DNA of 64,000 bases, from positions 129,294 through 193,293 of the forward strand of contig JAUIJE010000002.1 of NCBI GenBank assembly GCA_030431455.1, in the 5' to 3' direction. The notes under the pieces were generated by a model. That model was given only the letters and a program-made list of their open reading frames with translations. It had not been told where the DNA came from and searched no databases. The position numbers and the translations under genes are program-made. The stretch's first letter is position 1; every line of letters starts with the position of its first letter. This DNA is from a bacterium. Its GTDB lineage: Bacteria > Myxococcota > UBA727 > JAUIJE01. Positions 45,668 to 63,510 of the stretch are shown piece after piece.

Positions 45668-46052
45668 CATTGCCACTTCCGCGGCCTGGTACGACGAGGC
45701 TTTGGGCTTCGCCACCATGTTCGCGTCCCCCGACGGGCGGATGGCGCACCTGCGCGGGCGCAAGTACCAGGACCTGATGCTCGTGCCCGCGGGCGAGGCC
45801 GACCCGAGCCCAGCGATGATGTTGTCGTTCGATGTCGACCCGGACCTGCACGCTCTGCACAAAAAGGCCAAAGCCGCGGCGACGGTGGGCCGGTCCCATG
45901 TGGCCGACCTCGCGTCCACCCCGTGGGGCACGCTGGAGATGACCGTCACCGATCCCGACGGACACACGTTTGTCTTCACCCAGCGGGATAAAAACCCCGA
46001 GGTCACCGCGCGCATGCGGGAGCAGTTCGCGAAAGACCGCGGTGAACGCTAA
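45573..46052 (+). CDS. Glyoxalase/bleomycin-resistance/VOC-family protein.
   Basis: RBS AAGGAGAAAGAAG. 159 aa with an approximately 2x beta-alpha-beta-beta-beta pattern. MFARLSCRDIATSAAWY is a typical first strand. Confidence 0.65.
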   Translation: MTQPMKEPPTLGHHKGFEVYPMPMFARLSCRDIATSAAWYDEALGFATMFASPDGRMAHLRGRKYQDLMLVPAGEADPSPAMMLSFDVDPDLHALHKKAKAAATVGRSHVADLASTPWGTLEMTVTDPDGHTFVFTQRDKNPEVTARMREQFAKDRGER

Positions 46053-49000
46053 GGACCCGGTCGCACCACCGCGCCCGCCGGGATGTGGGCGCCGTCGTCG
46101 ACGGTGGCGCCGGTGAGCACTTGGGCCCCGGCGCCAATCACCGCGTGCGAACCGATGGTGACGTCGTCGCCGATCTGCGCGGTCTCGTGCACGACGACGT
46201 TGTCTTTGATCACGGTGCGGGCGCCCACGCGCACGTGCGGGCAGAGCACCGAGCGAAAACCGAGCACGCTGTCCTGCCCCATCTTGCAGTCCAGTGACAC
46301 ATAGGCATTGGGCTGGACCTGGACCCCGTCGGCGAGTTCGGCGCGGCCGAGCAACAGTTTGCTCTGGCCCATGAGGTGGCCGGCCACGCTCGAGCCCGCG
46401 GCGAGCAGCACCCCGCGCCCGAGGTCGAGCAAGGCCGGGTCCAAAATCCACGCGTCGGTGGCGGTGCGCACAAAATACGACGTGCGCGCGCCGAGGGCGC
46501 GCAGCGCGAGGTAGCGCAAGAGGTTGCTGCCGAGGATGGTGCGGCGCCAGAGCGGCAGGTAGAGGATGCGCTGGGCCATGAGCCGCAGGCCCCAGGCGGT
46601 GGTGGTCTTGTGCGAGAGCGCATAGAGCCCGGGCGACACCGGGGGCAACAGCCGCACCGCGGCCCCGACGAGGAAAATCAAGACCACCAAAAAGAGCAGG
46701 TAGGCCACGGGCAATAGGGCATAGCCGATCGCGCTCGGCACCAACGCGGCCAGCCACTGCCAAGCCGAGCCCGCGGCCGCGGCCGCGCCCCCCGCGGTGA
46801 CGAAAAAGAGCACAAAGAACGCGAGGTCGGTGATCACCGCGCCCTTTTCGGGCGAGGCCGTCGCCCCCTCGTCGTTGAACAGCGGACGGTCGCCGGACAG
46901 GCGCACGACCGCGGGCGCCGCGCCGGCGTCGCCGAGGTGGGCCGCGAGCTGGCGGATGGTGGGGTGGTCCCAGGCCACGGTGATGTCGATGGGCCGGCCG
47001 ATGTGTTCTTCGAGCGCGGCCACGAACTGGACCGCGGCCACCGAGTCGAGGCCAAACGTGCTGAACACCGCGTCCGGGTCCACCTCGTCCGCGGGCCGCG
47101 ACAGGCGCTCGGCCACCCACCCGATCATAAACGGCTCGAGCCCACCCGCCGCCGGGGCCGACGCGGGCCCGACCGGGGCCGGGGCGGATGCGGGCCCTGC
47201 TGGCGCCGACGCGCGGGCCTTTTTCGGCAATGTGCGCAGGTCGGCCACGGTGGCTTGGTCGAGGTCGAACCCGGCGCTGTCGAGCCCGCGGTCTTCACAC
47301 AGTTGCGCGAGGTGAATCTCGTCAAACCCGAGAGCGGACAGCGGCTGGTCCGAGGAGATCGCCGACTGTGCATAGCCAAGCTCGGCCGCCAGCCAGGCCA
47401 AGAGCCCATCGTCGGCTTCGCGCGATTTTTCCGCCGAAGGCCCGGCCGGGCGGGGGGCGTCTCGTCGGTGGGCGATGTCGAACGCCCCCTGTTCGAACTG
47501 CTCGCGCGCGGCCAAATGGCGAATCTTGCCGCTGGTGGTGCGCGGCAAGGCCACGCGGCCGACCACCGCGAGCGCGTCGGGGGCAAAGCCACAGTCTTGC
47601 AGCAGGCGCGCCGCCACCGCGTCAAAGGCGCGCCCGGCGGTGTCCGCGTCCCACTTCGCTTCGATGAGCAGCGCGGCCCGGTCTTGGTCGTCCTCGACAA
47701 ACGAAAACGCACACACCTCGGTGAAGGGCGCGCCCTGCGCTTCGAGGGCGCGGCGCGCGCTGTGCTCGACGTCTTCGGCGGCGTGGTTTTTGCCGTGCAC
47801 GATGAGCACGTTTTTTTTGCGCCCCACGATGTAGAGCTGCCCGTCACACATCGCGCCCAGGTCTCCGGTGCGCAAATAGCCGTCGCCGTGGCCGTGCACG
47901 GTGCGGCCGAAGGTCTCCGCGCTCAGCTCCGGCTTGCCATAATAGCCGCGCGCGACGTTGGGCCCCCGGTAGTAGACCTCGCCCACGGTGCCGTCGGGCA
48001 CCGGGCGTTGCTCGTCGTCGGCCACCACCAGCACGCCCCCGGGGGCGACCAGCCCCGCCGAGACCGTGGTCCCGAGCGCCAATGCGTCTTTGCTCTTGGT
48101 GCGCGCGGTGCCGGGCGGGGCCGAGGACACAAACAGCGTGGCCTCGGCCATGCCGTAGCAGGGCAAAAACACGTCCGGCCGGAGCCCGGCGGGCGCGAAC
48201 TTCTGCACAAACTGCTCGAGGGTGTCGGCCCGCACGCGCTCGGCCCCGCAGATCGCCGATTGCCACGCGGACAGGTCGAGCTTTTGTACGTCCTCGTCGG
48301 CGATGCGGTCGACGCACAACTGGTACGCGAAGTTGGGCCCGGCGGTGACGCGGGCTTTGTATTTGGCGATCGCTTCGAGCCAGCGAAACGGCCGCCGCAA
48401 AAACTGCGTCGGGGTCATGAAATAAAACCGCGCGGGCAAGAACACCGACTGCAACACCATGCCGAGCAGGCCCATGTCATGGTAGGGCGGCAACCAGCCC
48501 GCGCCCGGCCTGGGCTCTTCCCAGTCGTCGAACGAGAAGCGGGCGCACATCATGTCCTGGTTCGCAAAGGCATTGCGGTGGGTGACCATCACCCCCTTGG
48601 GCGCGCCGGTGCTGCCCGAGGTGTATTGCAAAAACGCCACGTCATCCGGCGCCGGCGGGGGCGCCACGTAGGGCGCGCCGCTTTCGTCGAGCACCACCTT
48701 GGCCATCGCGTCGAGGGCGTGGGGAAAAGTGCCCAGCTTGGCGAGGAGCGCGGCATCGAGGCTGATGGCCCCCGCGCGCGCGTCCTGGGCGATGGAGAGC
48801 GCGGGGCTTTCCGCGTCAAGCCGGCCCCCCCGCGGGGGGTAGGCGGGCACCGGGACCTTGCCCGCGAGCAAGGTCCCGAAGAAGGCCACGATGAAGTCGA
48901 TGCCCGCTTCGTGCCAGAGCAGCACCCGCTCGGCGTCAGGGGCGGCGCGGTGCAGGGCCCCCGCGACCCGGGACGCGCGGTCGAGCAATTGGGCCAAGGT

Positions 49001-49120
49001 CACGTCCTCGGCGATGTCGAGCTTGCTGTCCAAGAACGAATAGGCGACGAAGTCTGGGTGGGTCTCGGCCCGCCAGACCAAGAGTTCGGACAATGTCGCT
49101 GGACGTTCGGGCTCGGTCAT
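46049..49120 (-). CDS. Tri-functional fusion: fatty-acyl-AMP ligase (FAAL), acyl carrier protein, transmembrane segment and left-handed beta-helix (hexapeptide) acyltransferase.
   Basis: ATG 49120. FAAL motifs FLQYTSGSTGAPKGVMVTH and YRTGDLG. ACP FSTFGLDSVAAVQF (phosphopantetheinyl Ser). Three hydrophobic helices (AFFVLFFVTAGGAAAAAG...LLPVAYLLFLVVLIFLVGAAV). C-terminal hexapeptide repeats ...IKDNVVVHETAQIGDDVTIGSHAVIGAGAQVLTGATV. Confidence 0.8.
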   Translation of the reverse strand: MTEPERPATLSELLVWRAETHPDFVAYSFLDSKLDIAEDVTLAQLLDRASRVAGALHRAAPDAERVLLWHEAGIDFIVAFFGTLLAGKVPVPAYPPRGGRLDAESPALSIAQDARAGAISLDAALLAKLGTFPHALDAMAKVVLDESGAPYVAPPPAPDDVAFLQYTSGSTGAPKGVMVTHRNAFANQDMMCARFSFDDWEEPRPGAGWLPPYHDMGLLGMVLQSVFLPARFYFMTPTQFLRRPFRWLEAIAKYKARVTAGPNFAYQLCVDRIADEDVQKLDLSAWQSAICGAERVRADTLEQFVQKFAPAGLRPDVFLPCYGMAEATLFVSSAPPGTARTKSKDALALGTTVSAGLVAPGGVLVVADDEQRPVPDGTVGEVYYRGPNVARGYYGKPELSAETFGRTVHGHGDGYLRTGDLGAMCDGQLYIVGRKKNVLIVHGKNHAAEDVEHSARRALEAQGAPFTEVCAFSFVEDDQDRAALLIEAKWDADTAGRAFDAVAARLLQDCGFAPDALAVVGRVALPRTTSGKIRHLAAREQFEQGAFDIAHRRDAPRPAGPSAEKSREADDGLLAWLAAELGYAQSAISSDQPLSALGFDEIHLAQLCEDRGLDSAGFDLDQATVADLRTLPKKARASAPAGPASAPAPVGPASAPAAGGLEPFMIGWVAERLSRPADEVDPDAVFSTFGLDSVAAVQFVAALEEHIGRPIDITVAWDHPTIRQLAAHLGDAGAAPAVVRLSGDRPLFNDEGATASPEKGAVITDLAFFVLFFVTAGGAAAAAGSAWQWLAALVPSAIGYALLPVAYLLFLVVLIFLVGAAVRLLPPVSPGLYALSHKTTTAWGLRLMAQRILYLPLWRRTILGSNLLRYLALRALGARTSYFVRTATDAWILDPALLDLGRGVLLAAGSSVAGHLMGQSKLLLGRAELADGVQVQPNAYVSLDCKMGQDSVLGFRSVLCPHVRVGARTVIKDNVVVHETAQIGDDVTIGSHAVIGAGAQVLTGATVDDGAHIPAGAVVRPGP

Positions 49121-50028
49121 GCGGCGCGCGAGAGCTGCGCGTACTTGTCGAGCACCGGCGCGGCGTGCCGGGTGCGGGCAAACGCCCGGTGGGCGAGCAC
49201 CGCGCCGAGCCGCGCGGGGCGGTCGTGGTCGGGCACCCGGGGGGCGGCGTCGCGGCCGAGGTGGCGCTTGGCCACGTCGTCGGCCCAGGCCAAATACGCG
49301 CCCGCGTCGAAGAACTTCTCGAGCAGCTCGTGGGCAAAAAAGCGCGTCGCGAGGTCGCGCTCGCCGTCGGGCAAGGCCAGTGCCGACAAGTACGCAGAGT
49401 CGGTCACGATGTGTTGGGCTTCTTCCCGGCGGTGACAGGCGTGGGCGGTGAGCCAGCAGGGCTGGACCGGCTCTTTCATGTCGAGCAGCAGGTGGTGCAC
49501 CCGGACGGTGGCCTCTTCGAAAAAGAGAATGTCGAGCCACACCAAATAGTGAAAAGCGGCGGGGGGGAGCTTGTCCCCTTCGCCGAGGGCGAAGCGGCGA
49601 TTGGACAGCGTCGAGGTCGCTTGGTGCAGCCGGGCGGCCCAGTCCTCGTGCTGCTGCGCGAGCTTTTTCTGGTACCGGTTGAAGAGGGTGATGTGTTTGC
49701 CCTCTTCTTTGACCAGCGCGTCGAGGGCGATGCTCGGCCGCACGCTCGATTGTTGCTCGGCCACGAACCGCAAAATCAGCTTCTCGAGTTCGACAAACTC
49801 GCGGCACAGAAGCGTGGCTGCTCCCCATTGCAGCTCTTGGTCGGCGGCGGGCACCGCGCGGAACGGCCCCGGATCGATGCCCGCTTCGCGCAACAACACA
49901 TCGGGCACGTAGCGGCCGGGGGCATCAAACGCGTCCCAGGCCACGTCCTGTTCGAGGTCGAAGCGATAGCCGACATCCCGCGCGTCGAGGCGCTCGATGG
50001 GGGCCAGGTGGGGGTACAGACCGCTCAC
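49117..50028 (-). CDS. Putative di-iron oxygenase (AurF/ferritin-like four-helix-bundle family).
   Basis: Paired E...H motifs (EEGKHITLF; EEAQHIV; HELLEKF). Its stop overlaps the FAAL-fusion start (ATGA), so it is co-translated with it. Confidence 0.45.
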   Translation of the reverse strand: MSGLYPHLAPIERLDARDVGYRFDLEQDVAWDAFDAPGRYVPDVLLREAGIDPGPFRAVPAADQELQWGAATLLCREFVELEKLILRFVAEQQSSVRPSIALDALVKEEGKHITLFNRYQKKLAQQHEDWAARLHQATSTLSNRRFALGEGDKLPPAAFHYLVWLDILFFEEATVRVHHLLLDMKEPVQPCWLTAHACHRREEAQHIVTDSAYLSALALPDGERDLATRFFAHELLEKFFDAGAYLAWADDVAKRHLGRDAAPRVPDHDRPARLGAVLAHRAFARTRHAAPVLDKYAQLSRAA

Positions 50029-50092
50029 GCCCTCGTATATACAAGACGACCGCCGCCTCTCCTAGGCGGGGTCTTTTGTCCAGGAGCGCCGC

Positions 50093-51748
50093 GTGATCCC
50101 TCCGTCCCTTTTGCACACGCTCGGACAGGCTTCGCGCAAAAAAGAGGCCCAAGCCTTCATCCGCGATTGCGCGCAGCCGGACCTTGCCCAGCGCGCGCGG
50201 CTCGATTGGCTCCTGACCAACAACCAGGACACCGCGTTCGGCAAGCAGCACGGTTTTTCCGACATCCCTGACGCCCATGGCTATCGCGAGCGCGTGCCCC
50301 TCATGCGCCCGGCCGAGCTGCTGCCCTGGGTCGAGCGCCAAATGAAGGGCGAGCCCAACGTGCTCACCCGCGAAGACCCCGAGTACTTTGTGCGCACCAC
50401 CGGCTCGACCGGCGTGCCCAAACACGTGCCGATCACCCCCACCTACCGCACGGAGTTTCAGCGCACGGTGTTCTCGTCGGTGTGGCACATCTACCGCCGC
50501 TATCCCGCCGCGTTCAAAGGGCGCATCTTGTACTTCGTGGGCTCGCCCCAGCTCGACGTCACCGACGGGGGCGTGCCCATCGGGACCATGAGCGGCTACA
50601 ACTTTGTGAAGATGCCGGGGCTCGTGCGTGCGCTCTACGCCTGGCCGCCCGAGCTCTTTTCCGTCGCGGACCTGTCCACACGCAACTACATTGCCCTGCA
50701 CCTCGCGGCCACGTCCGGGGTCACGGTGATGGCGGGCATCTTTCCTGCCAGCGTGGTCTATCTGTTTCGCGACCTCGAAGAGCGCATCGAGCTGCTCGCC
50801 CACCACGTCAAAAAGGGCACCCTCCCTGACGAGCTCGTGCTCACCGACGCCCAGCGCGCGTTTTTTCAAAAACAGATTCGCCCCAGCAAAAAACACGGCG
50901 ACCGCCTCGCCCAAGCGGCCAAACAATCCCGGGGCGGCATCGTGCCCACCGTGCTCGACCAGCTCAAGCTCGCCTACTGCTGGACCACGTCGACGGCAGG
51001 CGCGTTTTTGCCCGAGCTGCGCGCCCACTTCGGTGACGAGATCATCATCCGCGACGCGATTTACTCGGCCTGCGAAGGGTGGTGCAACGTGCCCCTCGGC
51101 GAGCCCACCCCGGGCGGCCCCCTCGCGGTGCGGTCGCACTTTTTTGAGTTCATCCCCGAGGACAAGGCCGACGAGGACCAACCAGAGACATTGTTGGCCC
51201 AAGAGCTCGAGGTCGGCGAGCGCTACCTGATCGTGTTCTCCACCGCGGGGGGTGTCTACCGGTATCGTCTCGGGGACGTGGTCGAGGTCAGCTCGCGGTT
51301 TGAGCAGACCCCCGTCATCCACTTCGTGCGCAAGCTCGGCGCCGCCTGCAACCTGGTGGGCGAAAAACTCGAGGAGGTGCACGTGGCCCAGGCGGTGCGC
51401 GAGGTGTTCGGCGACGGGCTCACCTACTACGTGCTCGCCCCGCGCGCGGGCGACGTGCCCGGCTACGACCTTTACGTCGAGGGCGCATCCGACGGCGACT
51501 GGTCCGCGCGCACCGCCGCCATCGATGTGGCCCTCGGCAAAGCCGCCCCCGATTACGGGCGGCTCCGCCAAGGCCAAAGCCTCGGTCCGGTGCGCACCTT
51601 GGACGTGCCCGCGGGCACCTACCGCGCCGACCGGCAGCGGCTGAGCGATCTTGGCACCGCCGAGAGCCAGATCAAAACCGCGCACTTGGTCGACGACCAA
51701 GCGCGCGTGCCGGTGCTGGTCAAAGAACGCGCCGCGGTCCGCGCCTAA
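50093..51748 (+). CDS. GH3-family (auxin-responsive GH3-like) adenylate-forming acyl-acid amido synthetase.
   Basis: 551 aa. FVRTTGSTGVPKHVPIT is the ANL-superfamily P-loop. The length and the YRLGDVVEV, WSARTAAIDVAL regions fit bacterial GH3 proteins. Confidence 0.65.
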   Translation: MIPPSLLHTLGQASRKKEAQAFIRDCAQPDLAQRARLDWLLTNNQDTAFGKQHGFSDIPDAHGYRERVPLMRPAELLPWVERQMKGEPNVLTREDPEYFVRTTGSTGVPKHVPITPTYRTEFQRTVFSSVWHIYRRYPAAFKGRILYFVGSPQLDVTDGGVPIGTMSGYNFVKMPGLVRALYAWPPELFSVADLSTRNYIALHLAATSGVTVMAGIFPASVVYLFRDLEERIELLAHHVKKGTLPDELVLTDAQRAFFQKQIRPSKKHGDRLAQAAKQSRGGIVPTVLDQLKLAYCWTTSTAGAFLPELRAHFGDEIIIRDAIYSACEGWCNVPLGEPTPGGPLAVRSHFFEFIPEDKADEDQPETLLAQELEVGERYLIVFSTAGGVYRYRLGDVVEVSSRFEQTPVIHFVRKLGAACNLVGEKLEEVHVAQAVREVFGDGLTYYVLAPRAGDVPGYDLYVEGASDGDWSARTAAIDVALGKAAPDYGRLRQGQSLGPVRTLDVPAGTYRADRQRLSDLGTAESQIKTAHLVDDQARVPVLVKERAAVRA

Positions 51749-52329
51749 GGCAGCGCCGCGGCCTTGGCCTCCGCGCGGCGGAGGGCCCAGAACACAAAGC
51801 CCATGCACGCGATGAGCCCCACCACCGCGGGCACGATCACCGACGCGCCGGCATCGCCCGCGTTCTGTACGCTCCACGCGACCTTGCCGATGGCCATCAT
51901 CGCCATCACCGCGCCCCCGACGAGCTTGTTGCGTTTCCAAAACGCGAGGGCCAATAGGCCCAATGACAGCGGGGCGAGCAACGCCATGAACCCTTTGCTG
52001 AACGTCCACGTCCCGGTGAGCCAGTCCTTTTCAAACTGCAGAAACATTTTGACCTGTTCGCTCGCTTCGTCCGGCGCGGGGAACCAGAACATGCTGGTGA
52101 GGATGCCGAGCACCACCGCGGCGATGCCGGTCAGCGAACGTTTGTAGGCAAACCAGCAGAACGGAATGATGAACAGCGGCCGGATGAACCAGCTCAGCTG
52201 GTTTTCGTGCCGGGCGAACGCCCAATCAAAGAACGCCTCGCTGCTCGCCATCGCGATCACAAACCCGGCGCTCAACCCGAACAGCCCGGCGGCCACCGCG
52301 CGGTCCCGCGCCTTCTTCCTGTCGCCCAT
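51745..52329 (-). CDS. Hypothetical membrane protein (4-5 TM).
   Basis: Hydrophobic helices, W-rich (WFIRPLFIIPFCWFAY). Divergent from the TetR gene. Confidence 0.45.
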   Translation of the reverse strand: MGDRKKARDRAVAAGLFGLSAGFVIAMASSEAFFDWAFARHENQLSWFIRPLFIIPFCWFAYKRSLTGIAAVVLGILTSMFWFPAPDEASEQVKMFLQFEKDWLTGTWTFSKGFMALLAPLSLGLLALAFWKRNKLVGGAVMAMMAIGKVAWSVQNAGDAGASVIVPAVVGLIACMGFVFWALRRAEAKAAALP

Positions 52330-52464
52330 GTCCGCCTCCTGCCGGGCCAAACCGCTTGGTTTTCCGCCCGTTGTGCTCTATACCGACCATAGGTCGGTAA
52401 AGCCCTGGGGACAAGGAGATCTGCCCCCCTTGCTCAAATCCGAGACAATGCGGAGAGGACCGCG

Positions 52465-53950: not shown

Positions 53951-53953
53951 CGC

Positions 53954-55819: not shown

Positions 55820-55852
55820 GGCCGGGCGAGTATAGCGACCGGGGGGGGCGGC

Positions 55853-57226
55853 TCAATGCCCTCCGTCCAGGGTGGCCAGCGCGGCCGCCAAGGCTGGGCG
55901 GAGGTCGCGTTCGTCGACGACCACATCGAGGTAGCCGTGTTGCGCGGCCTGGGCCAGGGGCGAACGCCCATCGACGGTGGCGTCCCCTTTGATCTGGTCC
56001 TGGGCGGGCTGGCCCATGCCCACCACCTGGGCGGTGGGCAGGCCGATGCGGTGCTGGGCGGAATAGGACAGCACCGTGCCCCCGCCGACGCTGCGGCGGA
56101 GGATGACGCTCACGTGCGGGACCGCAGCATCGGCGAACGCGCAGACCACGCTCGCCCCCGCGTGCAGGATGCCGCCTTGCTCCTGGTCGAGCCCCGGCAA
56201 AAAGCCGGGCACGTCGACGAGGGAGACGAGGGGCAGGCCGAAGCGGTCCGCGCGCCGGATGTGCCGCGCGAGCTTGTGCGACGCGGTCACGTCGAGGGCG
56301 CCGGCCTGGTGCAGGGACTGGTTGGCGAAGAAGGCCACGCCCCGGCCCGCGAGCCGGGCAAAGCCGACCACGAGGCTGCGGCCATAGTCCGGCTCGAACC
56401 GCACCACGCTCCCGTCGTCGAACAGCCCGGTGATGACCTTTTGCACGTCAAAGCCTTGGCGCAACGACGCGGGCACCAGGCCCCCCAAGGTCGTGGCCGG
56501 CGCCTTCGCGGCCGCGGGGGTGCGCAGGTCGATCAGGGTGCGCACAAGGGCGATGCCCGCCGCCTCGTCGTCGACCACCGCTTGCACCGCGCCGGTGTAG
56601 GCCGCGTGCATGGCCGGGCCCCCGAGCTCGTCGAGGTCGACCTGTTGCCCCCGGGCCTGGGCGGTGACGGTGGGCCCGGTCAAGAAGAGATGGCTTTGCT
56701 CGTCGACCATCACCAGCACGTCGGTGAGCACCGCGGCGTAGGCGGCGGCGCCCCCGCACAGGCCACATGCCAATGTCACTTGAGGCACGCGGTGTTTGGC
56801 CCGGGCCACCGCTTCGGTCCACTGGGGGTTGCCGAGCACCGCGGGCACCCCGTCTTTGACCCGCGCCCCCTGAGAATCCATCAGCGCGATCACCGGCCAG
56901 CCCGCGGCGGTGGCCTGCTCGACGAGGCGGGCGGTCTTCTCCGCCCCCGCGCGCGTCACCGCGCCGCGGTCCACCGTCCCGTCGTGGGCATACACCGCGA
57001 CGCGCTGGGCCCCGATGCGCCCCACGCCGCACACCACGCCCTCCCCGCCGTCGAGGTAGCGTTGCCGCTCGACGAATGTGTCTGCATCGAGCAGCGCATC
57101 GATGCGCGCCCGCGGCCCGCCCCGGCCCATCCGGGCGTGGCGGGTGCGCAACACCTCGTCGCCCGCCGCGGCGAGCTCCTGCTCGAGAGCGGCGAGGTCG
57201 GCGGCGGGATCGCGCGGCTCGCTCAC
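55853..57226 (-). CDS. Carboxyltransferase (AccD/PccB-like beta subunit of acyl-CoA carboxylase).
   Basis: Two carboxyl-transferase half-domains (…GGEGVVCGVGRIG…, …ALDVTASHKLARHIRRADRFGLPLVSLVDVPGFLPG…). The GTG start at 57226 overlaps the upstream ACP stop (GTGA). The upstream ORF extension is low-complexity. Confidence 0.7.
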   Translation of the reverse strand: MSEPRDPAADLAALEQELAAAGDEVLRTRHARMGRGGPRARIDALLDADTFVERQRYLDGGEGVVCGVGRIGAQRVAVYAHDGTVDRGAVTRAGAEKTARLVEQATAAGWPVIALMDSQGARVKDGVPAVLGNPQWTEAVARAKHRVPQVTLACGLCGGAAAYAAVLTDVLVMVDEQSHLFLTGPTVTAQARGQQVDLDELGGPAMHAAYTGAVQAVVDDEAAGIALVRTLIDLRTPAAAKAPATTLGGLVPASLRQGFDVQKVITGLFDDGSVVRFEPDYGRSLVVGFARLAGRGVAFFANQSLHQAGALDVTASHKLARHIRRADRFGLPLVSLVDVPGFLPGLDQEQGGILHAGASVVCAFADAAVPHVSVILRRSVGGGTVLSYSAQHRIGLPTAQVVGMGQPAQDQIKGDATVDGRSPLAQAAQHGYLDVVVDERDLRPALAAALATLDGGH

Positions 57227-57477
57227 GCCGCGGACTCGCTGCGCCGGGCCTGGATGAACGCCACCAGGTCCTTGACCGTGTCGAGGTCGCGGTAATCGTG
57301 CAGCTTGGCCTTGTAACCGAACCGCTTGTGCACAAAGAACACAAAGTCCACCACGTCGAGCGAGTCGAGCCGCAGGTCGCGCACAAAGGACGCCTCCGGC
57401 GTGACCTGGTCGGGCTGGGCCCGGAAGTTTTGCACCAGGATGTCGCGGACAGCGTCGAGAATCTCTTGGTCGGTCAC
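57223..57477 (-). CDS. Acyl carrier protein.
   Basis: 84 aa from GTG 57477 (GGAG 9 nt upstream). DLRLDSLDVVDFVF is the phosphopantetheine attachment motif. It is embedded as the tail of a junk track ORF. Confidence 0.65.
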   Translation of the reverse strand: MTDQEILDAVRDILVQNFRAQPDQVTPEASFVRDLRLDSLDVVDFVFFVHKRFGYKAKLHDYRDLDTVKDLVAFIQARRSESAA

Positions 57478-57491
57478 GGCGATCGGCTCCG

Positions 57492-58514
57492 TCAGGGCGC
57501 GTCCCCCACGCGCCACAAGGCTGCGGCGCAGGCGTAGCCCGCGCCCGCGGCGAGCAGTAGCACAACATCCCCGGCTTGTACGCGGCCGGCGCGGCGGGCC
57601 CGGTCGAGGGCGATCAACACCGACCCCGACGAGGTGTTGCCCACGGTCTCGATGCAGGAAAAGACTTTGTCGTCGTCGAGCCCGGCCAGCGCGGCCACCC
57701 GGCGCAGGATGCGCCCGTTGGCCTGGTGCGGGACCACCAGCGACACCGCGGCTTTGTCGACGCCCGCCCCGTCGAGGATGCGCGCGGCCGCGTCGGCCAT
57801 GCCCTCGGTGGCGGACATGTACACATCGAGCCCGTCGACCATGCGCAAATGCTGCTCGCCCGCGGCGAGGCGTTCGGCGGTGAGCGGCCGGCGCGACCCG
57901 CCGCCGACGATGCCGATCTTGTCCCGTCCCCGGCTGTCCAAAAACGCCGCGGTGGCGAGCAGGCCGCCCGCGTCCGGGCCCGGCCCGAGCAAAAGCGCGC
58001 CCGCCCCGTCCGCGAACAAGGGCGCGGTGCCCACGTCGGTCACGTCCAGCACCCGCGAACGGATGTCCGCGCCGACGACGAGCACGACTTCGCCCGCGGT
58101 GAGCACGTGGCGCGCGGCGGTGTCGAGGGCATAAAGCGACCCGGCGCAGGCGGCGGCCACGTCGTGGGCGGGGCATTCGAGGTCGAGCCCGAGGCCCGCG
58201 TGCACGAAGCTCGCGGTCGAGGGCACGGGCTGGTCGGGCGAGGTCGTGGACACGATCAACCGGTCGATGCCGGCCGCGGACAGGCCCGCGTCGTCGAGAC
58301 ACGCCTTCGCCGCGGCGATGGCCAAATCCGAGGTGGCCACGTCGTCGGGCGCGATGTGCCGCGAGACGATGCCGGTCTTTTTCACGATGTCGTCGGCGGT
58401 GGTGTCACACCCCGCGGCGATGACCGCGGCGTTGTCGCGCACAGGATCCGGCAGATGGTGCCCGGTGCCGAGGATGTGCACGCGGGGGCCCGGGGGAAAG
58501 ACAAACACGCTCAT
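57492..58514 (-). CDS. fabH: 3-oxoacyl-ACP synthase III (KAS III / FabH).
   Basis: Cys-His-Asn triad contexts AAACAGSLYAL, VVPHQANGRI and GNTSSGS. The ATG at 58514 overlaps the upstream ACP stop (ATGA). Confidence 0.85.
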   Translation of the reverse strand: MSVFVFPPGPRVHILGTGHHLPDPVRDNAAVIAAGCDTTADDIVKKTGIVSRHIAPDDVATSDLAIAAAKACLDDAGLSAAGIDRLIVSTTSPDQPVPSTASFVHAGLGLDLECPAHDVAAACAGSLYALDTAARHVLTAGEVVLVVGADIRSRVLDVTDVGTAPLFADGAGALLLGPGPDAGGLLATAAFLDSRGRDKIGIVGGGSRRPLTAERLAAGEQHLRMVDGLDVYMSATEGMADAAARILDGAGVDKAAVSLVVPHQANGRILRRVAALAGLDDDKVFSCIETVGNTSSGSVLIALDRARRAGRVQAGDVVLLLAAGAGYACAAALWRVGDAP

Positions 58515-58726
58515 GCGGTTTTGTTCACCAAGGCACAAAGTCCCTGCACCGTGAGCGGCCGGGCCGCGGCCACGTCGGCCGCGCGCAACGTCACCGCGAG
58601 ACCCTCTTCGAGGGTCTCGATGAGCACGACCTCGTCGAACGAGTCGAGCTCGAGGGGCGCGTCATCGGCCGCGGGCAATGCCACGTGGGCGCGCAACAGC
58701 TGGCGCAACGATTCAGGGGTGCTCAC
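58511..58726 (-). CDS. Second small carrier protein (ACP/PCP-like).
   Basis: 71 aa with LELDSFDEVVLIETLEE, a Ser-containing DSx motif in helix II. Confidence 0.55.
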   Translation of the reverse strand: MSTPESLRQLLRAHVALPAADDAPLELDSFDEVVLIETLEEGLAVTLRAADVAAARPLTVQGLCALVNKTA

Positions 58727-59981
58727 CGTCGGACGGTCCTTTCAGCGCGGCCAGGCGATCGACCTTGCCCGAGCCGAGTGTGGGCAGCTCACGCCAAAAA
58801 CAAAAGGCCCGCGGGCGCATCGCCCCCGAAAGCTGCGCACGCACCTTCGCGATGACTTCGTCCGGGTCGCGGCGGGTGGCGATCGCGGCCTTCACGACCT
58901 GGCCCAGCCGGGCCGACGGCATGGGCCCCACCACCGCCGCGTCGATCCCGGGCACTTGCAACAGCGCATCTTCCACCGCCACCGGCGAGACGCGCACCCC
59001 GCCGGTGTTGATCACCGCGTCAGCGCGACCCTGGATGATCACGCGGCCCTCGTCATCGATGGCACCCACATCGCCGGTGGGCAAACGCCCTTCGTGGGTC
59101 GCTACCGTGGCCACGCCCTGGCCCCACTCGATGGTGCCCGACATCGCCCCGGGGGTCATCGCCCACAACTTGCCGTCCTCGACGACCATCTCCACCCCCG
59201 GCACGGGTGGACCCACGAGTCCGGGCACATCCGTCACCCCGTCGTCGCGCCAGGTGCAGAGCCGTGGCCCGGCTTCGGTGCAGCCATATTGGGTATAGCG
59301 CGCGCTGTTCGGCATCACCGTCCGCCACCGCTTCCACAGCGCCGCGTCCACCCGCGCCCCCGCCGACGCCACCCAAGCCGGGGCGACGGCGCCGTCGTCG
59401 ATGAGGTCGAGCAACATCGGCAGCTGGGACGGCACCAACTGCACGCCATCGGGCCGCGCGGCGAGAACCCCGCGGAGCCTGAGCAGGGCGGTGCGCCCGG
59501 TGGGCGCGACAAACGTGCCCCCTGCGATGATGGTCCACAGCAACTGGCCCACCAGTCCGTAGATGTGGTGCATCGGGCTCAGCCCGGCCATTCGACCGGG
59601 CGCGGGCAATACTTTGGAAATGGCGGCTAGGTTGTGCCGCACCGAGCGCCCCGACAACACTACCTGTCGAGGGGCCCCGGTGCTCCCTGACGACGCGACC
59701 ACCAGCGCCGCGCTCGGAAAATGTTCCTGCATCAAGAGCTCGGTCGCTGCATTCGGCGCGGTCACGGTGGGGCCCGGCACGATCACCGCACGCCCTTGCC
59801 GCCACCACGAGAGACAGTGCACCAGCACCCCTGCGGGGTTGCCGTCGTCGGGCCAGGGCACATCGCGTGCGGCCCGGTGCAGCAAAGCCACGCCGGTGGT
59901 GCTTTGTTTGCCCCGCACCAGCCGTGGTCGGTCGTCGTCTTCGAGCGCCCGGGCAAACGCTTGGTACAGCGCGCGGCTCAT
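58713..59981 (-). CDS. Stand-alone adenylate-forming enzyme (AMP-dependent synthetase/ligase, DltA/OleC-like size).
   Basis: VVASSGSTGAPRQVVLS P-loop, YGCTEAG, LPTGDVG, LGSGKVDR. Confidence 0.75.
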   Translation of the reverse strand: MSRALYQAFARALEDDDRPRLVRGKQSTTGVALLHRAARDVPWPDDGNPAGVLVHCLSWWRQGRAVIVPGPTVTAPNAATELLMQEHFPSAALVVASSGSTGAPRQVVLSGRSVRHNLAAISKVLPAPGRMAGLSPMHHIYGLVGQLLWTIIAGGTFVAPTGRTALLRLRGVLAARPDGVQLVPSQLPMLLDLIDDGAVAPAWVASAGARVDAALWKRWRTVMPNSARYTQYGCTEAGPRLCTWRDDGVTDVPGLVGPPVPGVEMVVEDGKLWAMTPGAMSGTIEWGQGVATVATHEGRLPTGDVGAIDDEGRVIIQGRADAVINTGGVRVSPVAVEDALLQVPGIDAAVVGPMPSARLGQVVKAAIATRRDPDEVIAKVRAQLSGAMRPRAFCFWRELPTLGSGKVDRLAALKGPSDGEHP

Positions 59982-61009
59982 GGGCGAAGCACCATCGCGG
60001 CCCCGGTCACGCCCCCGCCCACCGCGCAGAGCAACACGCGGCCTTTGGCGTCGAGGCGCCCGTCGCGCCGGGCCTCCGAGAGCGCGTAGAGCACCCCCGC
60101 GGCGCCGATGTTGGCGTGTTGGTGCACGGTGCTGACGCGGGGAACGTGCGCGAGGGCCACGTCGGTCATGACCTGCTGCACAAACCCCGCGCTGGTCTGG
60201 TGGGGCACGACCAGGTCAATGCCGCCCGGGGCCTTTTCCCGTGCGGCGGTGATGCATTGGGCGTAGAGGCCGCGCGCGCCGTCAGCGAACGCCCCCTCGT
60301 CGCCGGCCAAGCGGTATTCGCCCGCGGCGATGGCGTCGGCGGTGGGCGGCATCGGCCCCTTGGTGCCCACCGCGTCGGACAGGCCCTGCAGCGTGGTGGC
60401 CGCGAACGCCTCGATGGTGCCGGGGCCCGGGGTGAGCACCACCGCGGCGGCCCCGTCGGCGAGGTGGAGCGCGGCGAGCTTTTTGCCGGTGGGCAACACC
60501 CGCGAAAACGTGTCGCCGGCGACGACGAGCACACGCTTCGCCCCGGCCGCGATCCACTGCGCCCCGGTGAACACCGCGAGCAGGCCCCCCGCGCACCCGC
60601 TGCGCACGTCGAAGGCACAGCCGGCCGCGCCCAGGCGATGCGCGAGCACCGAGGCGGTGGGGGTGGTGAACCGGGCCGGGCTCGACGTGGCCACGATCAA
60701 AGCGTCGAGCGCGGCGGGGTCGGTCTGGGCGTCGGCCAAGGCGGCGTCGGCCGCGCCCGCGAGCAGGTCGAGGATGGTGACGTCCGCCCGCGCGGCGTAC
60801 GGCGGGGCCACAAAATGATGCTGCACCAGCCCGTGTTCGTCCTCGAGGGACTCGGCCACAAACGCGCGGTGCTCGTCGGAGGTGCCGTGGCCGATGTGGG
60901 CGAGCAGCGCCCGGTTGTCCATCGCCACCGGGCCCAGGCAGGTGCCGAGCCCCGCGAGCTGCAGGCCGGGCACCGGGCCGAGGGCAGACAGGCGGTTCGT
61001 TGCGTTCAC
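59978..61009 (-). CDS. Second KAS III-like condensing enzyme (FabH/OleA-like thiolase fold) with a variant active-site context.
   Basis: DVRSGCAGG (Cys), VPHQTS (His), HQHANIG. Its stop overlaps the adenylase start (ATGA). Confidence 0.7.
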   Translation of the reverse strand: MNATNRLSALGPVPGLQLAGLGTCLGPVAMDNRALLAHIGHGTSDEHRAFVAESLEDEHGLVQHHFVAPPYAARADVTILDLLAGAADAALADAQTDPAALDALIVATSSPARFTTPTASVLAHRLGAAGCAFDVRSGCAGGLLAVFTGAQWIAAGAKRVLVVAGDTFSRVLPTGKKLAALHLADGAAAVVLTPGPGTIEAFAATTLQGLSDAVGTKGPMPPTADAIAAGEYRLAGDEGAFADGARGLYAQCITAAREKAPGGIDLVVPHQTSAGFVQQVMTDVALAHVPRVSTVHQHANIGAAGVLYALSEARRDGRLDAKGRVLLCAVGGGVTGAAMVLRP

Positions 61010-61101
61010 GACCGCACGGTACCACCCGATGCTCGAGTTGAGACATCCGCGCGGGGGTCGCCCGGGTGGCTCTATTCTGATCGGGTCCCATTAGCGACCT
61101 G

Positions 61102-61557
61102 TTGGCCCACCCCTGGATCGATGTCAGCGAGGCCCCGCTGTACCGGCTGACGCTGTTCAAAGCGAAAGCGCCCGAGCAAGAGTGGGAACCGCTCGTCGAG
61201 TCCTGGATGCAGACCACGCGCGACTTCTACGCCCAGCTCGACCACCCGCTGGGCTGGGTCGTCGACGCCCGGTTTGTGCCCTCGTCCCGTTCGACCTCGC
61301 AGCAGCGACACCGGCTGCGGCAACACCTCAACGACACCGCCCCGGTGATGGGCCAATGGTGCGCGGCCGCCGCGATCATCATCGACAAGGCCGCGGTGCG
61401 CGGCGTGCTCACCGCGTTGCACTGGATTTCGCCCCCCGCCTATCCACAAAAGGTTTTCGCGACCCCGGAGGAGGGCGAAGCCTGGGTTCGCCCCCGGCTC
61501 GACGCCGCGCTGGACGCGCACGGATGGGCTACTGGACGGTCCGCGCCGGTGCGCTAG
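61102..61557 (+). CDS. Hypothetical protein.
   Basis: 151 aa ORF of balanced composition between two biosynthetic operon arms. TTG start per the track, and the true start is uncertain. No recognisable motif. Confidence 0.3.
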   Translation: MAHPWIDVSEAPLYRLTLFKAKAPEQEWEPLVESWMQTTRDFYAQLDHPLGWVVDARFVPSSRSTSQQRHRLRQHLNDTAPVMGQWCAAAAIIIDKAAVRGVLTALHWISPPAYPQKVFATPEEGEAWVRPRLDAALDAHGWATGRSAPVR

Positions 61558-61566
61558 CCTCGCCCC

Positions 61567-62316
61567 ATGACCTTGTCACCCGGCGCGATGGTGGTGATCG
61601 GCGGCTCCACCGGGGCCGGTCGCGCGGTGGCGACGTCGTTCGCGAAGGCGGGGGGCACGGTCTATGCCGCCGGCCGCGACGAGGACCGGCTCGCGTCGCT
61701 GCAAAAAGAGCTCGACGACCGTGGCCAGACCTTCGCCCTCGACGTGACCACCCCGGACGCGTTTTTGTTCGTGGGCGCGCTGCCCGACGCGCCGGCGGTG
61801 ACCGGCGCGGTCTACGCCGCGGCCCACCGGTATGTGCCTGCACGCTTACACCACATGGGCGACGACGAGCTGTTGCAGGTGCTGTCCACAGATTTGCTCG
61901 GGGCCGAACGGTTCGCGCGGGCCGTCCTGCCCCGGCTCATGACCCAGCCCACGTCGAGCCTGGTGTTCGTCGGGTCGCTGGCCGCGCAGGTGGGCATGAA
62001 GGGGGGCGCGGCCTATGCCGCGGCCAAGGCCGGGCTCGAGGGGCTCGCGCGCAACCTCGCCCTCGAGTACGGCCAGTACGGCGTGCGCTGCAACGTGGTG
62101 CGGCCCGGCTTCATCGACGGGGCGCGCTTCGACGCGCGCACCGCCGACAGCGACGCCCGGCGCGAAAAGCTGCTCGCCCAGACCACCCTCGGCACGTTGG
62201 TGAGCGAACAAGACGTGGCCGACCTCGTGCTGTTTTTATGTTCGGACAAGGCCCGCGCCATCACCGGCGCGGTGGTGGACATCACCGCCGGGGCCCACCT
62301 GAACCGCCTTTGGTGA
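61567..62316 (+). CDS. Short-chain dehydrogenase/reductase (SDR; FabG/OleD-like).
   Basis: VIGGSTGAGRAVA (glycine-rich NAD(P) loop), S...YAAAK catalytic YxxxK, PGFIDG. Confidence 0.8.
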   Translation: MTLSPGAMVVIGGSTGAGRAVATSFAKAGGTVYAAGRDEDRLASLQKELDDRGQTFALDVTTPDAFLFVGALPDAPAVTGAVYAAAHRYVPARLHHMGDDELLQVLSTDLLGAERFARAVLPRLMTQPTSSLVFVGSLAAQVGMKGGAAYAAAKAGLEGLARNLALEYGQYGVRCNVVRPGFIDGARFDARTADSDARREKLLAQTTLGTLVSEQDVADLVLFLCSDKARAITGAVVDITAGAHLNRLW

Positions 62317-63433
62317 GCAGCGCGTACACCAGGTAAAAGCCCGCGCAGACCGCGGCCATGATCCCGTACACCGTTTGGGCATAGCCGGCGTACAACCCCA
62401 AAAAGAGCGGGGGCCCGACCACGGTGGCCACGTCGGTGAGCGTCCCGTACACCCCGAAGGTGGTCCCGTACCGGCCTTCGCCGGAATGGTCCGCCACCGC
62501 CTTGAGCGCGAGGGCGAACACGATGGACGCAACCAGCACATACCCCAGGAATGTCACTGCAAACGCCGCGGGCCCCGGGATCGCGTACATCGCGGCCAAC
62601 ACCCCCGCGAGGGCGAGCCCAAAGACGAGAATGGTGCGCGCGGGCCGCACCCGGTCGGCCAAAAAGCCGCCGATGCCCTGGGCCACGCCGAAGAGCACCC
62701 CCATGCCCAAAAAAAGCAGGGACACGGTGCGCGTGTCCCAGGCGAACGCGTCTTTTCCGTACACGGGCAAAAGGCCTTGAAAGGCGGTGTACGTCATCTT
62801 GTTGAAAAAGACCGGGAGCATCAGGGCCACGAGCCACACGTCGACCAGCGCGGTCTTGATGTGCGCGACCTCTTCGCGCAGCGTGGTCGGTTCTTTCACA
62901 TTGCCCTCGGGCAACCGCCGCACGAGGAGCAGGACCGAGACCAGGGCCGAGACCCCAAACGCGAGCCAGATGACAAAGCGCGGGCCGTGGCTTTCGGAAA
63001 ACGCCGCGGCCAGGCCCGGCCCGACGAGCAGCCCCGCGGTGCCCACCGCCCCGATGGTGCCCACCCGCCGCCCGGTGGTGGCCGGGTCCCCGGTGGCGAC
63101 GACCACGCCGGACGCGGGGTAGACAAGTCCCGTGGCCGCGCCTTCGAGGGTGCGCGCGATGGCGAGCACAATGGCATTGTCGGTCAAACAGAACGGCAAC
63201 AGCGACAAGGTGAACAGCACCGTGCCAATGATGAGCATGCGCCGGCCCCCGTGGCGGTCGGCGAGCACGCCCCCCGGGACCTGGGCCACGATTTTGCTCG
63301 TGGCGTAACAAAAAAGAATCATCGCCAGCGCGCCTTCGCGCCCAAACGTGTCGTCGATGAGCGCGGGCAACTGCGGGATGATCACCCCGTACCCGAGCGA
63401 CACGATGAACAAGGCGGTGGCGCACAACCACAT
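62282..63433 (-). CDS. MFS transporter.
   Basis: 12 predicted helices. The GxLaDrxGrR-like motif VPGGVLADRHGGRRM lies between TM2 and TM3. Confidence 0.8.
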   Translation of the reverse strand: MWLCATALFIVSLGYGVIIPQLPALIDDTFGREGALAMILFCYATSKIVAQVPGGVLADRHGGRRMLIIGTVLFTLSLLPFCLTDNAIVLAIARTLEGAATGLVYPASGVVVATGDPATTGRRVGTIGAVGTAGLLVGPGLAAAFSESHGPRFVIWLAFGVSALVSVLLLVRRLPEGNVKEPTTLREEVAHIKTALVDVWLVALMLPVFFNKMTYTAFQGLLPVYGKDAFAWDTRTVSLLFLGMGVLFGVAQGIGGFLADRVRPARTILVFGLALAGVLAAMYAIPGPAAFAVTFLGYVLVASIVFALALKAVADHSGEGRYGTTFGVYGTLTDVATVVGPPLFLGLYAGYAQTVYGIMAAVCAGFYLVYALLTKGGSGGPRR

Positions 63434-63477: not shown

Positions 63478-63510
63478 CGCAAAAAAGGACGCACCGCGTG
63501 TGCGGTGCGC
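63478..63510 (-). terminator. Rho-independent terminator on the minus strand (GCGCACCGC-ACAC-GCGGTGCGC then T-run).
   Basis: Plus strand reads aaaaaaggacgcaccgcgtgtgcggtgcgc. On the minus strand this is a hairpin followed by UUUUUU, directly downstream of repeat unit A. Confidence 0.55.

Follow-up and report, generated by a model that had tools for sequence, protein, structure and literature searches.

A candidate gene cluster for specialised-lipid biosynthesis in a member of the Myxococcota

Gene content of the cluster

Sixteen genes fill positions 46049-63433 of a 64,000-nucleotide stretch of DNA from a member of the Myxococcota (GenBank assembly GCA_030431455.1, contig JAUIJE010000002.1, positions 129,294 to 193,293 of the forward strand, here called the window), and we consider it highly probable that they form a cluster dedicated to a specialised lipid. 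They encode two fatty acyl-AMP ligases (FAALs), a carboxyltransferase (CT), two 3-ketoacyl-ACP synthases III (KASIIIs; ACP, acyl carrier protein), a short adenylase with a small carrier protein of its own, a short-chain dehydrogenase/reductase (SDR), a GH3 amido synthetase and a membrane transferase with a left-handed beta-helix (LbH), together with tailoring, regulatory and export genes. An earlier note, made from the letters of this DNA, had listed this set of domains over the same interval and called it an undescribed cluster of lipid or polyketide-like type. The domain set, the coordinates and the view of a dedicated cluster all hold up: the genes are coherent, they are syntenic in distant relatives, and no description of the cluster or its architecture was found in the literature. 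The gene list of the note named the right families but lacked two genes, g4 and g14.

The window is about 69% G+C throughout and its raw lists of open reading frames (ORFs) are noisy; genes were called by the G+C content at third codon positions (GC3), and each call was checked with Pfam and NCBIfam. The high G+C, genes of kinds usual in myxobacteria and the best named homologues all agree with a myxobacterial origin. The four gene overlaps that had been reported are all present on the minus strand (ATGA 49117-49120, GTGA 57223-57226, ATGA 58511-58514 and ATGA 59978-59981), the first being that of the g2 stop with the g1 start. From g13 to g6 the genes form a single co-directional run, counted as nine genes, with overlaps or gaps of at most 33 nt. 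In order of position the genes are:

g1, 46049-49120, minus strand: FAAL, degenerate carrier-like segment, ACP, two transmembrane (TM) helices and LbH transferase in one protein (1023 aa; Pfam)
g2, 49117-50028, minus strand: putative soluble di-iron carboxylate protein (303 aa; sub-threshold AurF match and motifs)
g3, 50093-51748, plus strand: GH3 acyl-acid amido synthetase (551 aa; three GH3 Pfam domains)
g4, 51745-52350, minus strand: hydrophobic membrane protein without a family (201 aa; GC3 0.87)
g5, 52465-53127, plus strand: TetR-family regulator (220 aa; Pfam TetR_N, 2.5e-14)
g6, 53093-53950, minus strand: membrane di-iron enzyme of the fatty-acid hydroxylase superfamily (285 aa; Pfam FA_hydroxylase, 1e-31)
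g7, 53954-55819, minus strand: stand-alone FAAL (621 aa; Pfam AMP-binding, 4e-62)
g8, 55853-57226, minus strand: acyl-thioester CT, PccB/AccD/MccB-like (457 aa; Pfam Carboxyl_trans, 1e-83)
g9, 57223-57516, minus strand: ACP (about 97 aa; Pfam PP-binding, 3e-8; start taken as the GTG at 57516)
g10, 57492-58514, minus strand: FabH-like KASIII, here KASIII-b (340 aa; NCBIfam PRK09352)
g11, 58511-58726, minus strand: small dedicated carrier protein (71 aa; invariant Ser and orthologues)
g12, 58713-59981, minus strand: short ANL adenylase (422 aa; Pfam AMP-binding, 4e-25, and AMP-binding_C, 5e-9)
g13, 59978-61009, minus strand: divergent KASIII, here KASIII-a (343 aa; Pfam ACP_syn_III and ACP_syn_III_C)
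g14, 61102-61557, plus strand: protein without a family, upstream of the SDR on the same strand (151 aa; GC3 0.86)
g15, 61567-62316, plus strand: FabG-like SDR (249 aa; Pfam adh_short_C2, 6e-41)
g16, 62282-63433, minus strand: efflux transporter of the major facilitator superfamily (MFS), at the right-hand end of the cluster (383 aa; Pfam MFS_1, 1e-54)

Conservation and division into two modules

Related loci, found in metagenomes and metagenome-assembled genomes (MAGs), keep the same genes in the same order. Their phyletic spread is known from MAG labels and about a dozen contigs, and the named matches are mainly Myxococcota, with one Planctomycetes MAG. The conserved order is KASIII-a, adenylase (418-488 aa), carrier (67-86 aa), KASIII-b, ACP, CT and FAAL, and it is seen in the window, in the loci L001, L002/L090, L003/L004 and L092, and in two JGI contigs. 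Close by are an SDR and an LbH protein of 255-312 aa, and often a GH3 enzyme, an MFS transporter, an acyl-CoA dehydrogenase (ACAD), a methyltransferase or a P450. The genes are not scattered in distant relatives, a point on which the earlier note had let its claim depend, and recur there in the same order.

The CT gene g8 has an identical copy in the databases, and its next relatives are 40-48% identical. About 30 homologues with at least 40% identity were listed among 5.8e9 proteins, followed by generic PccB proteins, and all those whose context was read (P0002, P0008, P0011, P0021, P0025 and P0028) lie within a related cluster. A scan of metagenomes with a KASIII-a alignment added L089/L094, L091, L092 and L093, which hold this gene set as well, and L090, a longer piece of the L002 contig. 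The corresponding scan of named genomes with a CT alignment, which picks up generic PccB motifs, gave ordinary propionyl-CoA carboxylases among the 80 loci listed; tblastn on these 80 found the cluster in none of them, only a FadD-CT pair in one Streptomyces.

This rarity bears on the most ordinary explanation, that the genes are a housekeeping set for fatty-acid synthesis or salvage, i.e. a fab operon. It is true that g10 scores above a FabH cut-off, that g9 resembles AcpP-type carrier proteins and that g15 resembles FabG. However, some 30 close CT homologues are too few for a housekeeping function, the set also holds a GH3 enzyme, two FAALs, a membrane LbH, a TetR regulator and an MFS transporter, and neither fabD, fabF nor fabZ was found within the 41-64 kb stretch. 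We regard a fab operon, which the earlier note had named as the explanation to exclude, as hardly credible.

The comparison divides the cluster into two modules. Module A, the more widespread one, comprises KASIII-a, the short adenylase, the carrier of about 70 aa, usually KASIII-b, the SDR, the GH3 enzyme and an exporter. Module B, which appears in a subset of the loci, comprises an ACP coupled to a PccB/MccB-like CT, a FAAL, and a membrane transferase made of two TM helices and an LbH (2 TM + LbH). The GH3 clade has 292 matches at E<=1e-40, with named members in MAGs of Kofleriaceae, Polyangiaceae, Archangiaceae, Myxococcaceae, Planctomycetes, Sericytochromatia and Kiritimatiellia, and module A is present in every GH3 context read, three in number (L086, L087 and L088). 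L086 and L087 have KASIII-adenylase-carrier-KASIII beside SDR, MFS and GH3 genes; in L086 the sequence to the right of KASIII-b lies outside the stretch read, and in L087 an alpha/beta hydrolase follows KASIII-b in the position of ACP-CT-FAAL. L088, from the Planctomycetes MAG, is minimal, with a single KASIII and the run SDR-adenylase-MMPL-carrier-GH3. Within the sequence read, L087 and L088 hold module A without CT, FAAL or LbH, and L089 has a g1-like fusion without a CT. L085 holds ACP-CT-FAAL-ACAD with an LbH protein and SDRs, and no KASIII within 10 kb.

As each module is seen alone in the sequence read (module A in L087 and L088, ACP-CT-FAAL-ACAD with LbH in L085), they could be independent neighbours with separate products. 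We find this quite improbable, for in the window and, elsewhere, in at least five loci, ACP-CT-FAAL comes immediately after KASIII-b and shares its strand, the genes of the window overlapping, and the L085 contig also bears a GH3 enzyme of the same clade (P0192).

The enzymes of module A

Both Pfam domains of the KASIII family, ACP_syn_III and ACP_syn_III_C, were found in g10 and g13. In an alignment of 12 cluster KASIIIs to E. coli FabH, the reference being a sequence entered by hand, Cys112-His244-Asn274 (E. coli numbering) is invariant, and the enzymes split into two clades, KASIII-b being 31-39% and KASIII-a 26-30% identical to FabH. g10 is 37% identical to E. coli FabH and passes the FabH subfamily cut-off of NCBIfam PRK09352 (272 bits, cut-off 249). 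g13 matches FabH structures at E 3e-30 to 1e-17, as compared to 8e-6 (29 bits) for the OleA of Xanthomonas (3ROW/3S21). KASIII-a is the sole KASIII of the minimal locus L088 and the condensing enzyme common to every related module A locus read.

The earlier note had read an OleA/OleC/OleD logic, leading to an olefin or a beta-lactone, into these genes, and this part of its interpretation had to be given up. The likeness is that the lipstatin (LstABCD) and OleABCD/nocardiolactone operons also combine two KASIII-family genes, an ANL enzyme and a reductase acting on fatty acyl chains. LstAB and OleA, however, condense without decarboxylation, with a Glu base from one subunit, whereas both KASIIIs here are FabH-like with the full Cys-His-Asn triad, and their genes are separated by those of the adenylase and the carrier. 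With its OleA scores so low for g13, and g10 on the FabH side of the cut-off, membership of OleABCD was rejected. No OleB-type alpha/beta hydrolase was found with Pfam between 46049 and 63433, nor is there a carrier-independent OleC, as the sole short ANL enzyme, g12, always has its own carrier. This constant pairing fits g12 to the role of a loader and not of a beta-lactone synthetase, and it agrees with the suggestion, made in the note as well, that the second carrier and the adenylase are a loading module.

The core motifs of ANL enzymes, including the C-terminal catalytic Lys, are invariant in seven orthologues of g12, which is presumed to be an acid:carrier-protein ligase. As a query in a word-based search g12 gave just 7 matches at E<=1e-20, the protein being too fast-evolving. 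Its nearest solved enzymes are oxalate, malonate, feruloyl, coumarate and anthranilate ligases, i.e. enzymes for short-chain or aryl acids, with E 1e-20 at best. These are not long-chain ligases, and one may ask if the product is instead a small diffusible metabolite or signal: g12 would load an aryl, keto or amino acid, the KASIIIs would extend it as in PqsD/PqsBC or dialkylresorcinol synthesis, the GH3 enzyme would conjugate it, and the FAAL chain would be an alkyl tail only. A TetR regulator with an MFS efflux pump is typical of secondary metabolite clusters, and relatives carry P450, methyltransferases, a B12-radical SAM enzyme and a nitroreductase. On the other hand all g12 matches are weak and span only the conserved core, no conserved aromatase, cyclase, chorismate-utilising enzyme or aminotransferase was found, and the presence of a membrane LbH, an FA_hydroxylase and two FAALs suggests that the substrates are lipids, so that we judge a small metabolite improbable. 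PqsD/PqsBC, BioZ, ZhuH and the PA3286-type enzymes do share with the cluster a FabH-like enzyme that condenses an unusual acyl primer with a malonyl thioester; the cluster differs in that the primer would sit on a dedicated 70-aa carrier, with a truncated ANL adenylase, and in the GH3 amide synthetase downstream.

g11 itself has no Pfam match. Its orthologues sit between the adenylase and KASIII-b in the relatives, where they give weak Pfam PP-binding matches, and the Ser of an LDS/LES motif is invariant across them, which together identify g11 as a carrier protein. With invariant KASIII triads, carrier Ser and adenylase core motifs, the condensing and loading enzymes look intact. The best NCBIfam matches of g15 are FabG models for 3-oxoacyl-ACP reductase (150 bits, under the cut-off), and it is presumed to reduce 3-oxoacyl groups; its homologues, 38-48% identical, adjoin KASIII-a in most related loci.

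The enzymes of module B

That both proposed FAALs are FAALs and not acyl-CoA ligases is well borne out. g7 and the N-terminal part of g1 match solved FAALs (E. coli 3PBK, Legionella 3KXW, FadD23, FadD28 and FadD32) at E 1e-82 to 1e-97, and acyl-CoA ligases at about 1e-20 to 1e-25; for g7 the values are 2e-82 for 3PBK and 1e-25 for 4-coumarate-CoA ligases. g7 spans 495 aa over a region that takes 473 aa in 4-coumarate-CoA ligase, and the approximately 22 extra residues fit the FAAL insertion. On the FadD32 equivalog model g1 and g7 reach 265-272 bits, the cut-off being 975. g7 is 36-40% identical to the FAALs of L002, L003, L085 and L092, where the FAAL comes after the CT.

The Carboxyl_trans match of g8 covers residues 32-386. 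Its best structural matches are the carboxyl transferase 5INF/5INI/5ING (6e-75), then PccB and AccD5 (the range being 1e-66 to 6e-75), and the MCC and GCC beta subunits and the subunits of malonate decarboxylase score far lower. We take 5INF/5INI to be the beta subunit of a medium-chain acyl-CoA carboxylase that gives alkylmalonyl-CoA for stambomycin. The Gly-rich active-site segments of g8 are invariant in 23 homologues, and with a Carboxyl_trans domain holding both half-sites it is predicted to be a beta-type subunit of a biotin-dependent acyl-CoA carboxylase, PccB/AccD-like by its structural matches, as had been proposed. Biotin carboxylase and biotin carboxyl carrier protein (BCCP) were not found among the scanned window genes or in any gene table of the related loci, and fabD, fabF and a phosphopantetheinyl transferase were likewise not found among the scanned window genes. 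At 457 aa, g8 is about 30-60 residues shorter than the homologues of cluster type (484-521 aa), the shortfall lying mainly in a C-terminal segment that the other homologues conserve. The ACP g9 matches NCBIfam acyl carrier protein models at 1e-16, slightly under their cut-offs. The stop of the ACP gene overlaps the start of the CT gene in the window and in five of six related loci, which argues for a tight partnership of the two proteins.

The three genes for FAAL, ACP and PccB/MccB-like CT adjoin those of a KASIII and an SDR, and it is therefore conceivable that the core of the cluster condenses two long fatty acyl chains head to head, as in mycolate (FadD32/AccD4) or lipstatin/Ole synthesis. 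The product would be a 2-alkyl-3-hydroxy or 3-oxo acid, a beta-lactone or an olefin, and the GH3 and LbH enzymes would merely decorate it. Decarboxylative KASIIIs with Cys-His-Asn would suit an alkylmalonyl extender, and the LstAB KASIII pair builds alpha-branched beta-keto acids (PMC12141560). We nevertheless consider this unlikely. The KASIIIs are of the FabH and not the OleA kind, and the cluster is without OleB, a carrier-free synthetase of OleC type and Pks13. Furthermore, the set of KASIII, adenylase, carrier, SDR and GH3 occurs without FAAL or CT in L087 and L088, and without CT in L089, so a condensation of two chains cannot define the family. Of the FadD32/AccD4 logic put forward earlier, the enzyme types stand, but the head-to-head reaction would be at most an add-on, the FAAL/CT pair being absent from at least two loci (L087 and L088).

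A closer comparison with mycolate synthesis (FadD32/Pks13/AccD4, with the MccB-type supply represented by 5INF/5INI) shows what is shared: a FAAL gene lies beside the gene of a PccB/AccD-type CT, and the 2-carboxyacyl thioester that such a pair could supply would suit a decarboxylative Claisen condensation with keto-reduction after it. It differs in that the cluster has no Pks13 or any other protein with ketoacyl-synt or other polyketide synthase (PKS) domains, the KASIIIs being discrete. The CT is translationally coupled to a free-standing ACP and comes without biotin carboxylase and BCCP, the FadD32 and AccD equivalog cut-offs are missed, and the organism is not an actinobacterium.

The g1 fusion and the LbH transferase

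In g1 an AMP-binding domain (E 1e-60), whose best PDB matches are FAALs (E 3e-97), precedes a PP-binding domain (5e-18, residues 669-729) and, behind two TM helices, an LbH recognised by Hexapep (1e-14). The LbH acyltransferase named in the earlier note is thus present, not as a separate gene but as the C-terminal domain of g1, and it is Pls/PosA-like. The C-terminal 284 aa match TIGR02353, the Pls/PosA terminal domain, at E 2e-12 as the second-ranked NCBIfam match, along with LpxD/LpxA models; the score is 46 bits against a cut-off of 423 and covers profile positions 238-433 of 695. For the stand-alone LbH proteins tested, TIGR02353 was the top NCBIfam match in four of four. An exhaustive search of 1.84 billion representatives found 126 LbH relatives at E<=1e-10, nearly all of them 250-300 aa.

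In the terminal domain of Pls/PosA a pair of TM helices with a left-handed beta-helix behind it occurs three times; the domain packs like a trimeric acyltransferase and joins the acyl group from a carrier to a free amine (PMC10522769). Like these synthetases of epsilon-poly-L-lysine and delta-poly-L-ornithine, g1 has an adenylation domain, a carrier, paired TM helices and a left-handed beta-helix. Unlike them it has one 2 TM + LbH unit instead of three and would presumably trimerise, and no polymer is expected. Its adenylation domain is a FAAL and not an amino-acid A domain, and most relatives encode the unit as a separate protein of 250-310 aa; scores are 43-67 bits as compared to 423. It appears that g1 resembles the Pls/PosA family in mechanism but is no member of it, and the LbH is predicted to be a membrane transferase of Pls/PosA-like type that takes its acyl group from a carrier protein.

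The LbH proteins either co-occur with ACP-CT-FAAL or are fused to FAAL-ACP. P0259 and P0262 are FAAL-ACP-LbH fusions like g1, L089 has a g1-like ORF of 1042 aa, and P0322 (1556 aa) holds FAAL, ACAD, ACP and TM-LbH in one polypeptide. These two kinds of fusion, FAAL-ACP-LbH and FAAL-ACAD-ACP-LbH, tie the LbH functionally to a FAAL-loaded carrier, and g1 may be a self-contained unit that activates, carries and transfers a fatty acid.

P0322 is also a Rosetta stone for the relatives, its four functions being separate neighbouring genes in L003, L085 and L092. It suggests that the dehydrogenase acts on the FAAL-loaded, carrier-bound chain before the LbH transfers it. Residues ~551-660 of g1 (47141-47470, minus strand) form a second carrier-like segment between the FAAL and the true ACP. 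It has a marginal PP-binding match (E 0.038, residues ~570-640) and reads GFDEI where the phosphopantetheine Ser motif would be, and is probably a degenerate carrier or a docking domain.

GH3, tailoring, regulation and export

All three GH3 domains of g3 (N, M and C) are found by Pfam above the cut-offs, at 2e-50, 2e-21 and 2e-9. The three GH3 nucleotide motifs listed for OlsH and AtGH3.11/12 (PMC12493201) have their counterparts in TTGSTGVPK, YSACE and GVYRYRLGD of g3, which looks catalytically intact. Homologues with 41-51% identity occur in L003, L086, L087, L088, L089 and L094. The sole NCBIfam match is OlsH (NF052613), with 78 bits against a cut-off of 620 and its best stretch at residues 26-231. 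With that score, and no alpha/beta hydrolase in the cluster, membership of the OlsH equivalog was rejected.

OlsH is an ATP-dependent enzyme that converts free fatty acids to N-acyl ornithine (PMC12493201), and the OlsH/OlsI ornithine-lipid pathway of Singulisphaera acidiphila described there is nonetheless a useful model. Common to both are a GH3 enzyme with the three nucleotide motifs, expected to use ATP to convert a free (3-hydroxy) fatty acid into an N-acyl amide, a further enzyme for the addition of another acyl chain, and tailoring hydroxylases and methyltransferases encoded nearby. The differences are that g3 belongs to another GH3 clade, that the window cluster lacks an alpha/beta hydrolase of OlsI type, and that the Ols pathway is without the acyl-chain factory of adenylase, carrier, KASIIIs and SDR and without the FAAL/ACP/CT/LbH module.

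The best NCBIfam match of g6, the last gene of the main operon, is the ornithine-lipid hydroxylase OlsE (206 bits, cut-off 475), and its translation holds the His boxes HRLLH, HELHH and HRIHH; a homologue with 44% identity is found in L001. As relatives carry methyltransferases, P450 and alpha/beta hydrolases, and the window and L001 an OlsE-like hydroxylase, the tailoring genes of the family seem, by analogy, to mirror known aminolipid tailoring. In L089, positions 11568-16311 and 19763-20452 encode a B12-binding radical SAM enzyme, a nitroreductase, an aldo-keto reductase and a second MFS transporter, the gene of which shares 4 nt at its stop with the FAAL-ACP-LbH gene. This suggests that tailoring may be extensive and family-specific there, e.g. 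C-methylation.

The assignment of g2 as a di-iron protein is the weakest call in the cluster. The oxygenase named in the earlier note holds in so far as the translation has two E-x(~30)-ExxH motifs (EEGKH and EEAQH), but the Pfam AurF match (E 1e-5) stays at 25.3 bits, below the gathering score of 29.6. g2 gave no NCBIfam match, the PDB sequence search found only a marginal symerythrin, no homologue was found in seven related loci, and an AlphaFold2 model from the single sequence reached a pLDDT of 36. For g4 no Pfam family, and for g14 no Pfam or NCBIfam family, was found, and neither has a homologue in the related loci. The NCBIfam matches of the regulator g5 are weak and all sub-threshold. 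The exporter g16 has homologues with 38-42% identity in L003, L086, L087, L090 and L092.

Proposed pathway

Our preferred reading, which we put forward tentatively, is that the cluster is a dedicated two-module pathway in type-II style to an amide-linked lipid of lipoamino-acid or aminolipid type. The most likely product would be an N-(3-hydroxyacyl) amine or amino-acid lipid with a second, possibly modified, acyl chain. While the genes present, their synteny, the domain families, the intact catalytic motifs and the fusions are seen directly in the sequences, we infer every substrate, the order of the steps, the role of the CT and this product.

In module A, g12 would activate a carboxylic acid and load it onto its own carrier g11; a fatty acid is the likeliest substrate. 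g13, in most loci together with g10, would extend the chain by decarboxylative Claisen condensation and g15 would reduce the 3-oxo group. After release, g3 would adenylate the free acid and couple it to an amine or amino acid by chemistry of the OlsH type, and g16 would export the product. In module B, g7 would load a long-chain fatty acid on the ACP g9, and g8 would carboxylate it at C2, using the biotin carboxylase and BCCP of the cell, to an alkylmalonyl thioester which might serve KASIII-b as a branched extender. The membrane 2 TM + LbH unit would then acylate the lipid, at a hydroxyl or amino group, from an ACP-bound chain. Here the LbH has its own fused FAAL-ACP in g1, and the co-translated g2 may modify the tethered chain, conceivably as a CylC-like halogenase or an acyl-ACP desaturase. 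g6 would hydroxylate and g5 regulate.

Several points weigh against this proposal. Enzymes of the GH3 family need a free acid, and no thioesterase is conserved in the core. The order could also be reversed, the GH3 enzyme acting first and the resulting N-acyl amino acid then being loaded by g12 and extended. Among solved enzymes g12 comes nearest, with weak scores, to ligases of short-chain or aryl acids, the LbH matches are weak as well and partly driven by repeats (43-67 bits), and the distance of g3 from the OlsH model means that the acyl and amine substrates of OlsH are not transferable to it. Without biotin carboxylase or BCCP in the window, carboxylation needs partners from outside, and g8 could act as a decarboxylase instead.

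A mycolate-like branch over an alkylmalonyl thioester is possible. It forms part of a wider and doubtful proposal, that the cluster is a type-II line for a new class of membrane or signalling lipid. Such a line would use an alpha-carboxylated, carrier-bound fatty acid as branched extender, GH3 amidation of a hydroxy acid, and a single-unit, Pls-type membrane LbH as a new kind of carrier-dependent catalyst of lipid condensation and acyl transfer. An alpha-carboxylated branched extender may amount to mycolic-acid-like chemistry outside the Actinobacteria.

Surroundings of the cluster

The left-hand neighbours of the cluster are a 4HBT thioesterase (42352-42840), a lipoprotein, MerR, PhyH and a glyoxalase. 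None of these five has a homologue in seven related loci, and for this reason the thioesterase, MerR, PhyH and glyoxalase genes were dropped as cluster members. On the right-hand side a strong, terminator-like hairpin (63486-63513) and a Y-RNA-like gene lie beyond g16, and with these flanks the boundaries 46049-63433 hold.

The Y-RNA-like gene (63592-63725, minus strand) is a full-length match to Rfam YrlA with 49.1 bits and E 6e-10, the gathering score being 69, and has a tRNA-like domain; the hairpin lies on its downstream side on its own strand. The Y-RNA-like unit, of about 145 nt, recurs about 350 nt away: its second copy starts at ~63864 and is cut off at 64000, where the window ends. 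Y-RNA-like genes thus seem to stand in tandem here, perhaps beside an rsr (Ro60) gene outside the window. At the other border the ORF of the PhyH-family dioxygenase (44882-45667, plus strand) overlaps that of the glyoxalase family (45537-46052, plus strand) by about 130 nt. As the GC3 signal changes frame near 45500, one start or stop assignment is probably wrong.

The rest of the window holds regulators, secreted repeat proteins and riboflavin genes. A long gene run at 12078-28137 on the minus strand encodes a ceramidase-like protein (sub-threshold), a scramblase-family protein and then four proteins of 879-1224 aa, among them one with ten MopE metal-binding repeats and PPC, one with ASH/HYDIN Ig-like domains and one without a family. 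The run appears to be unrelated to the lipid cluster. Among the related loci, L002 has at 366-2177 (minus strand) a 603-aa protein with a partial match to the anti-phage ProA model (86 bits, cut-off 1500), which is probably an unrelated neighbour.

Significance

Every domain of the cluster comes from a known family, and the novelty is the combination: a GH3 enzyme in a pathway based on carrier proteins, a CT coupled to an ACP, and a single-unit, Pls-type LbH fused or linked to FAAL-ACP. It is not a categorically new kind of system but a fatty-acid-derived or aminolipid biosynthetic cluster. In our judgement, cluster finders that work by rules may miss this architecture, as it has no PKS, non-ribosomal peptide synthetase or other signature core enzyme.

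If the proposed pathway is true, bacterial GH3 amide synthetases would go from one characterised case, OlsH, to several hundred sequences in dedicated pathways, and the ACP-coupled CT would add a new way of making alkylmalonyl extender units. It would also give a role to the stand-alone 2 TM + LbH units, the kin of the enigmatic polymerisation domain of poly-lysine synthetases, a role which the FAAL-ACP-LbH and FAAL-ACAD-ACP-LbH fusions make directly testable. The cluster would then provide a genetic handle on a lipid class in the Myxococcota and other poorly cultured phyla.

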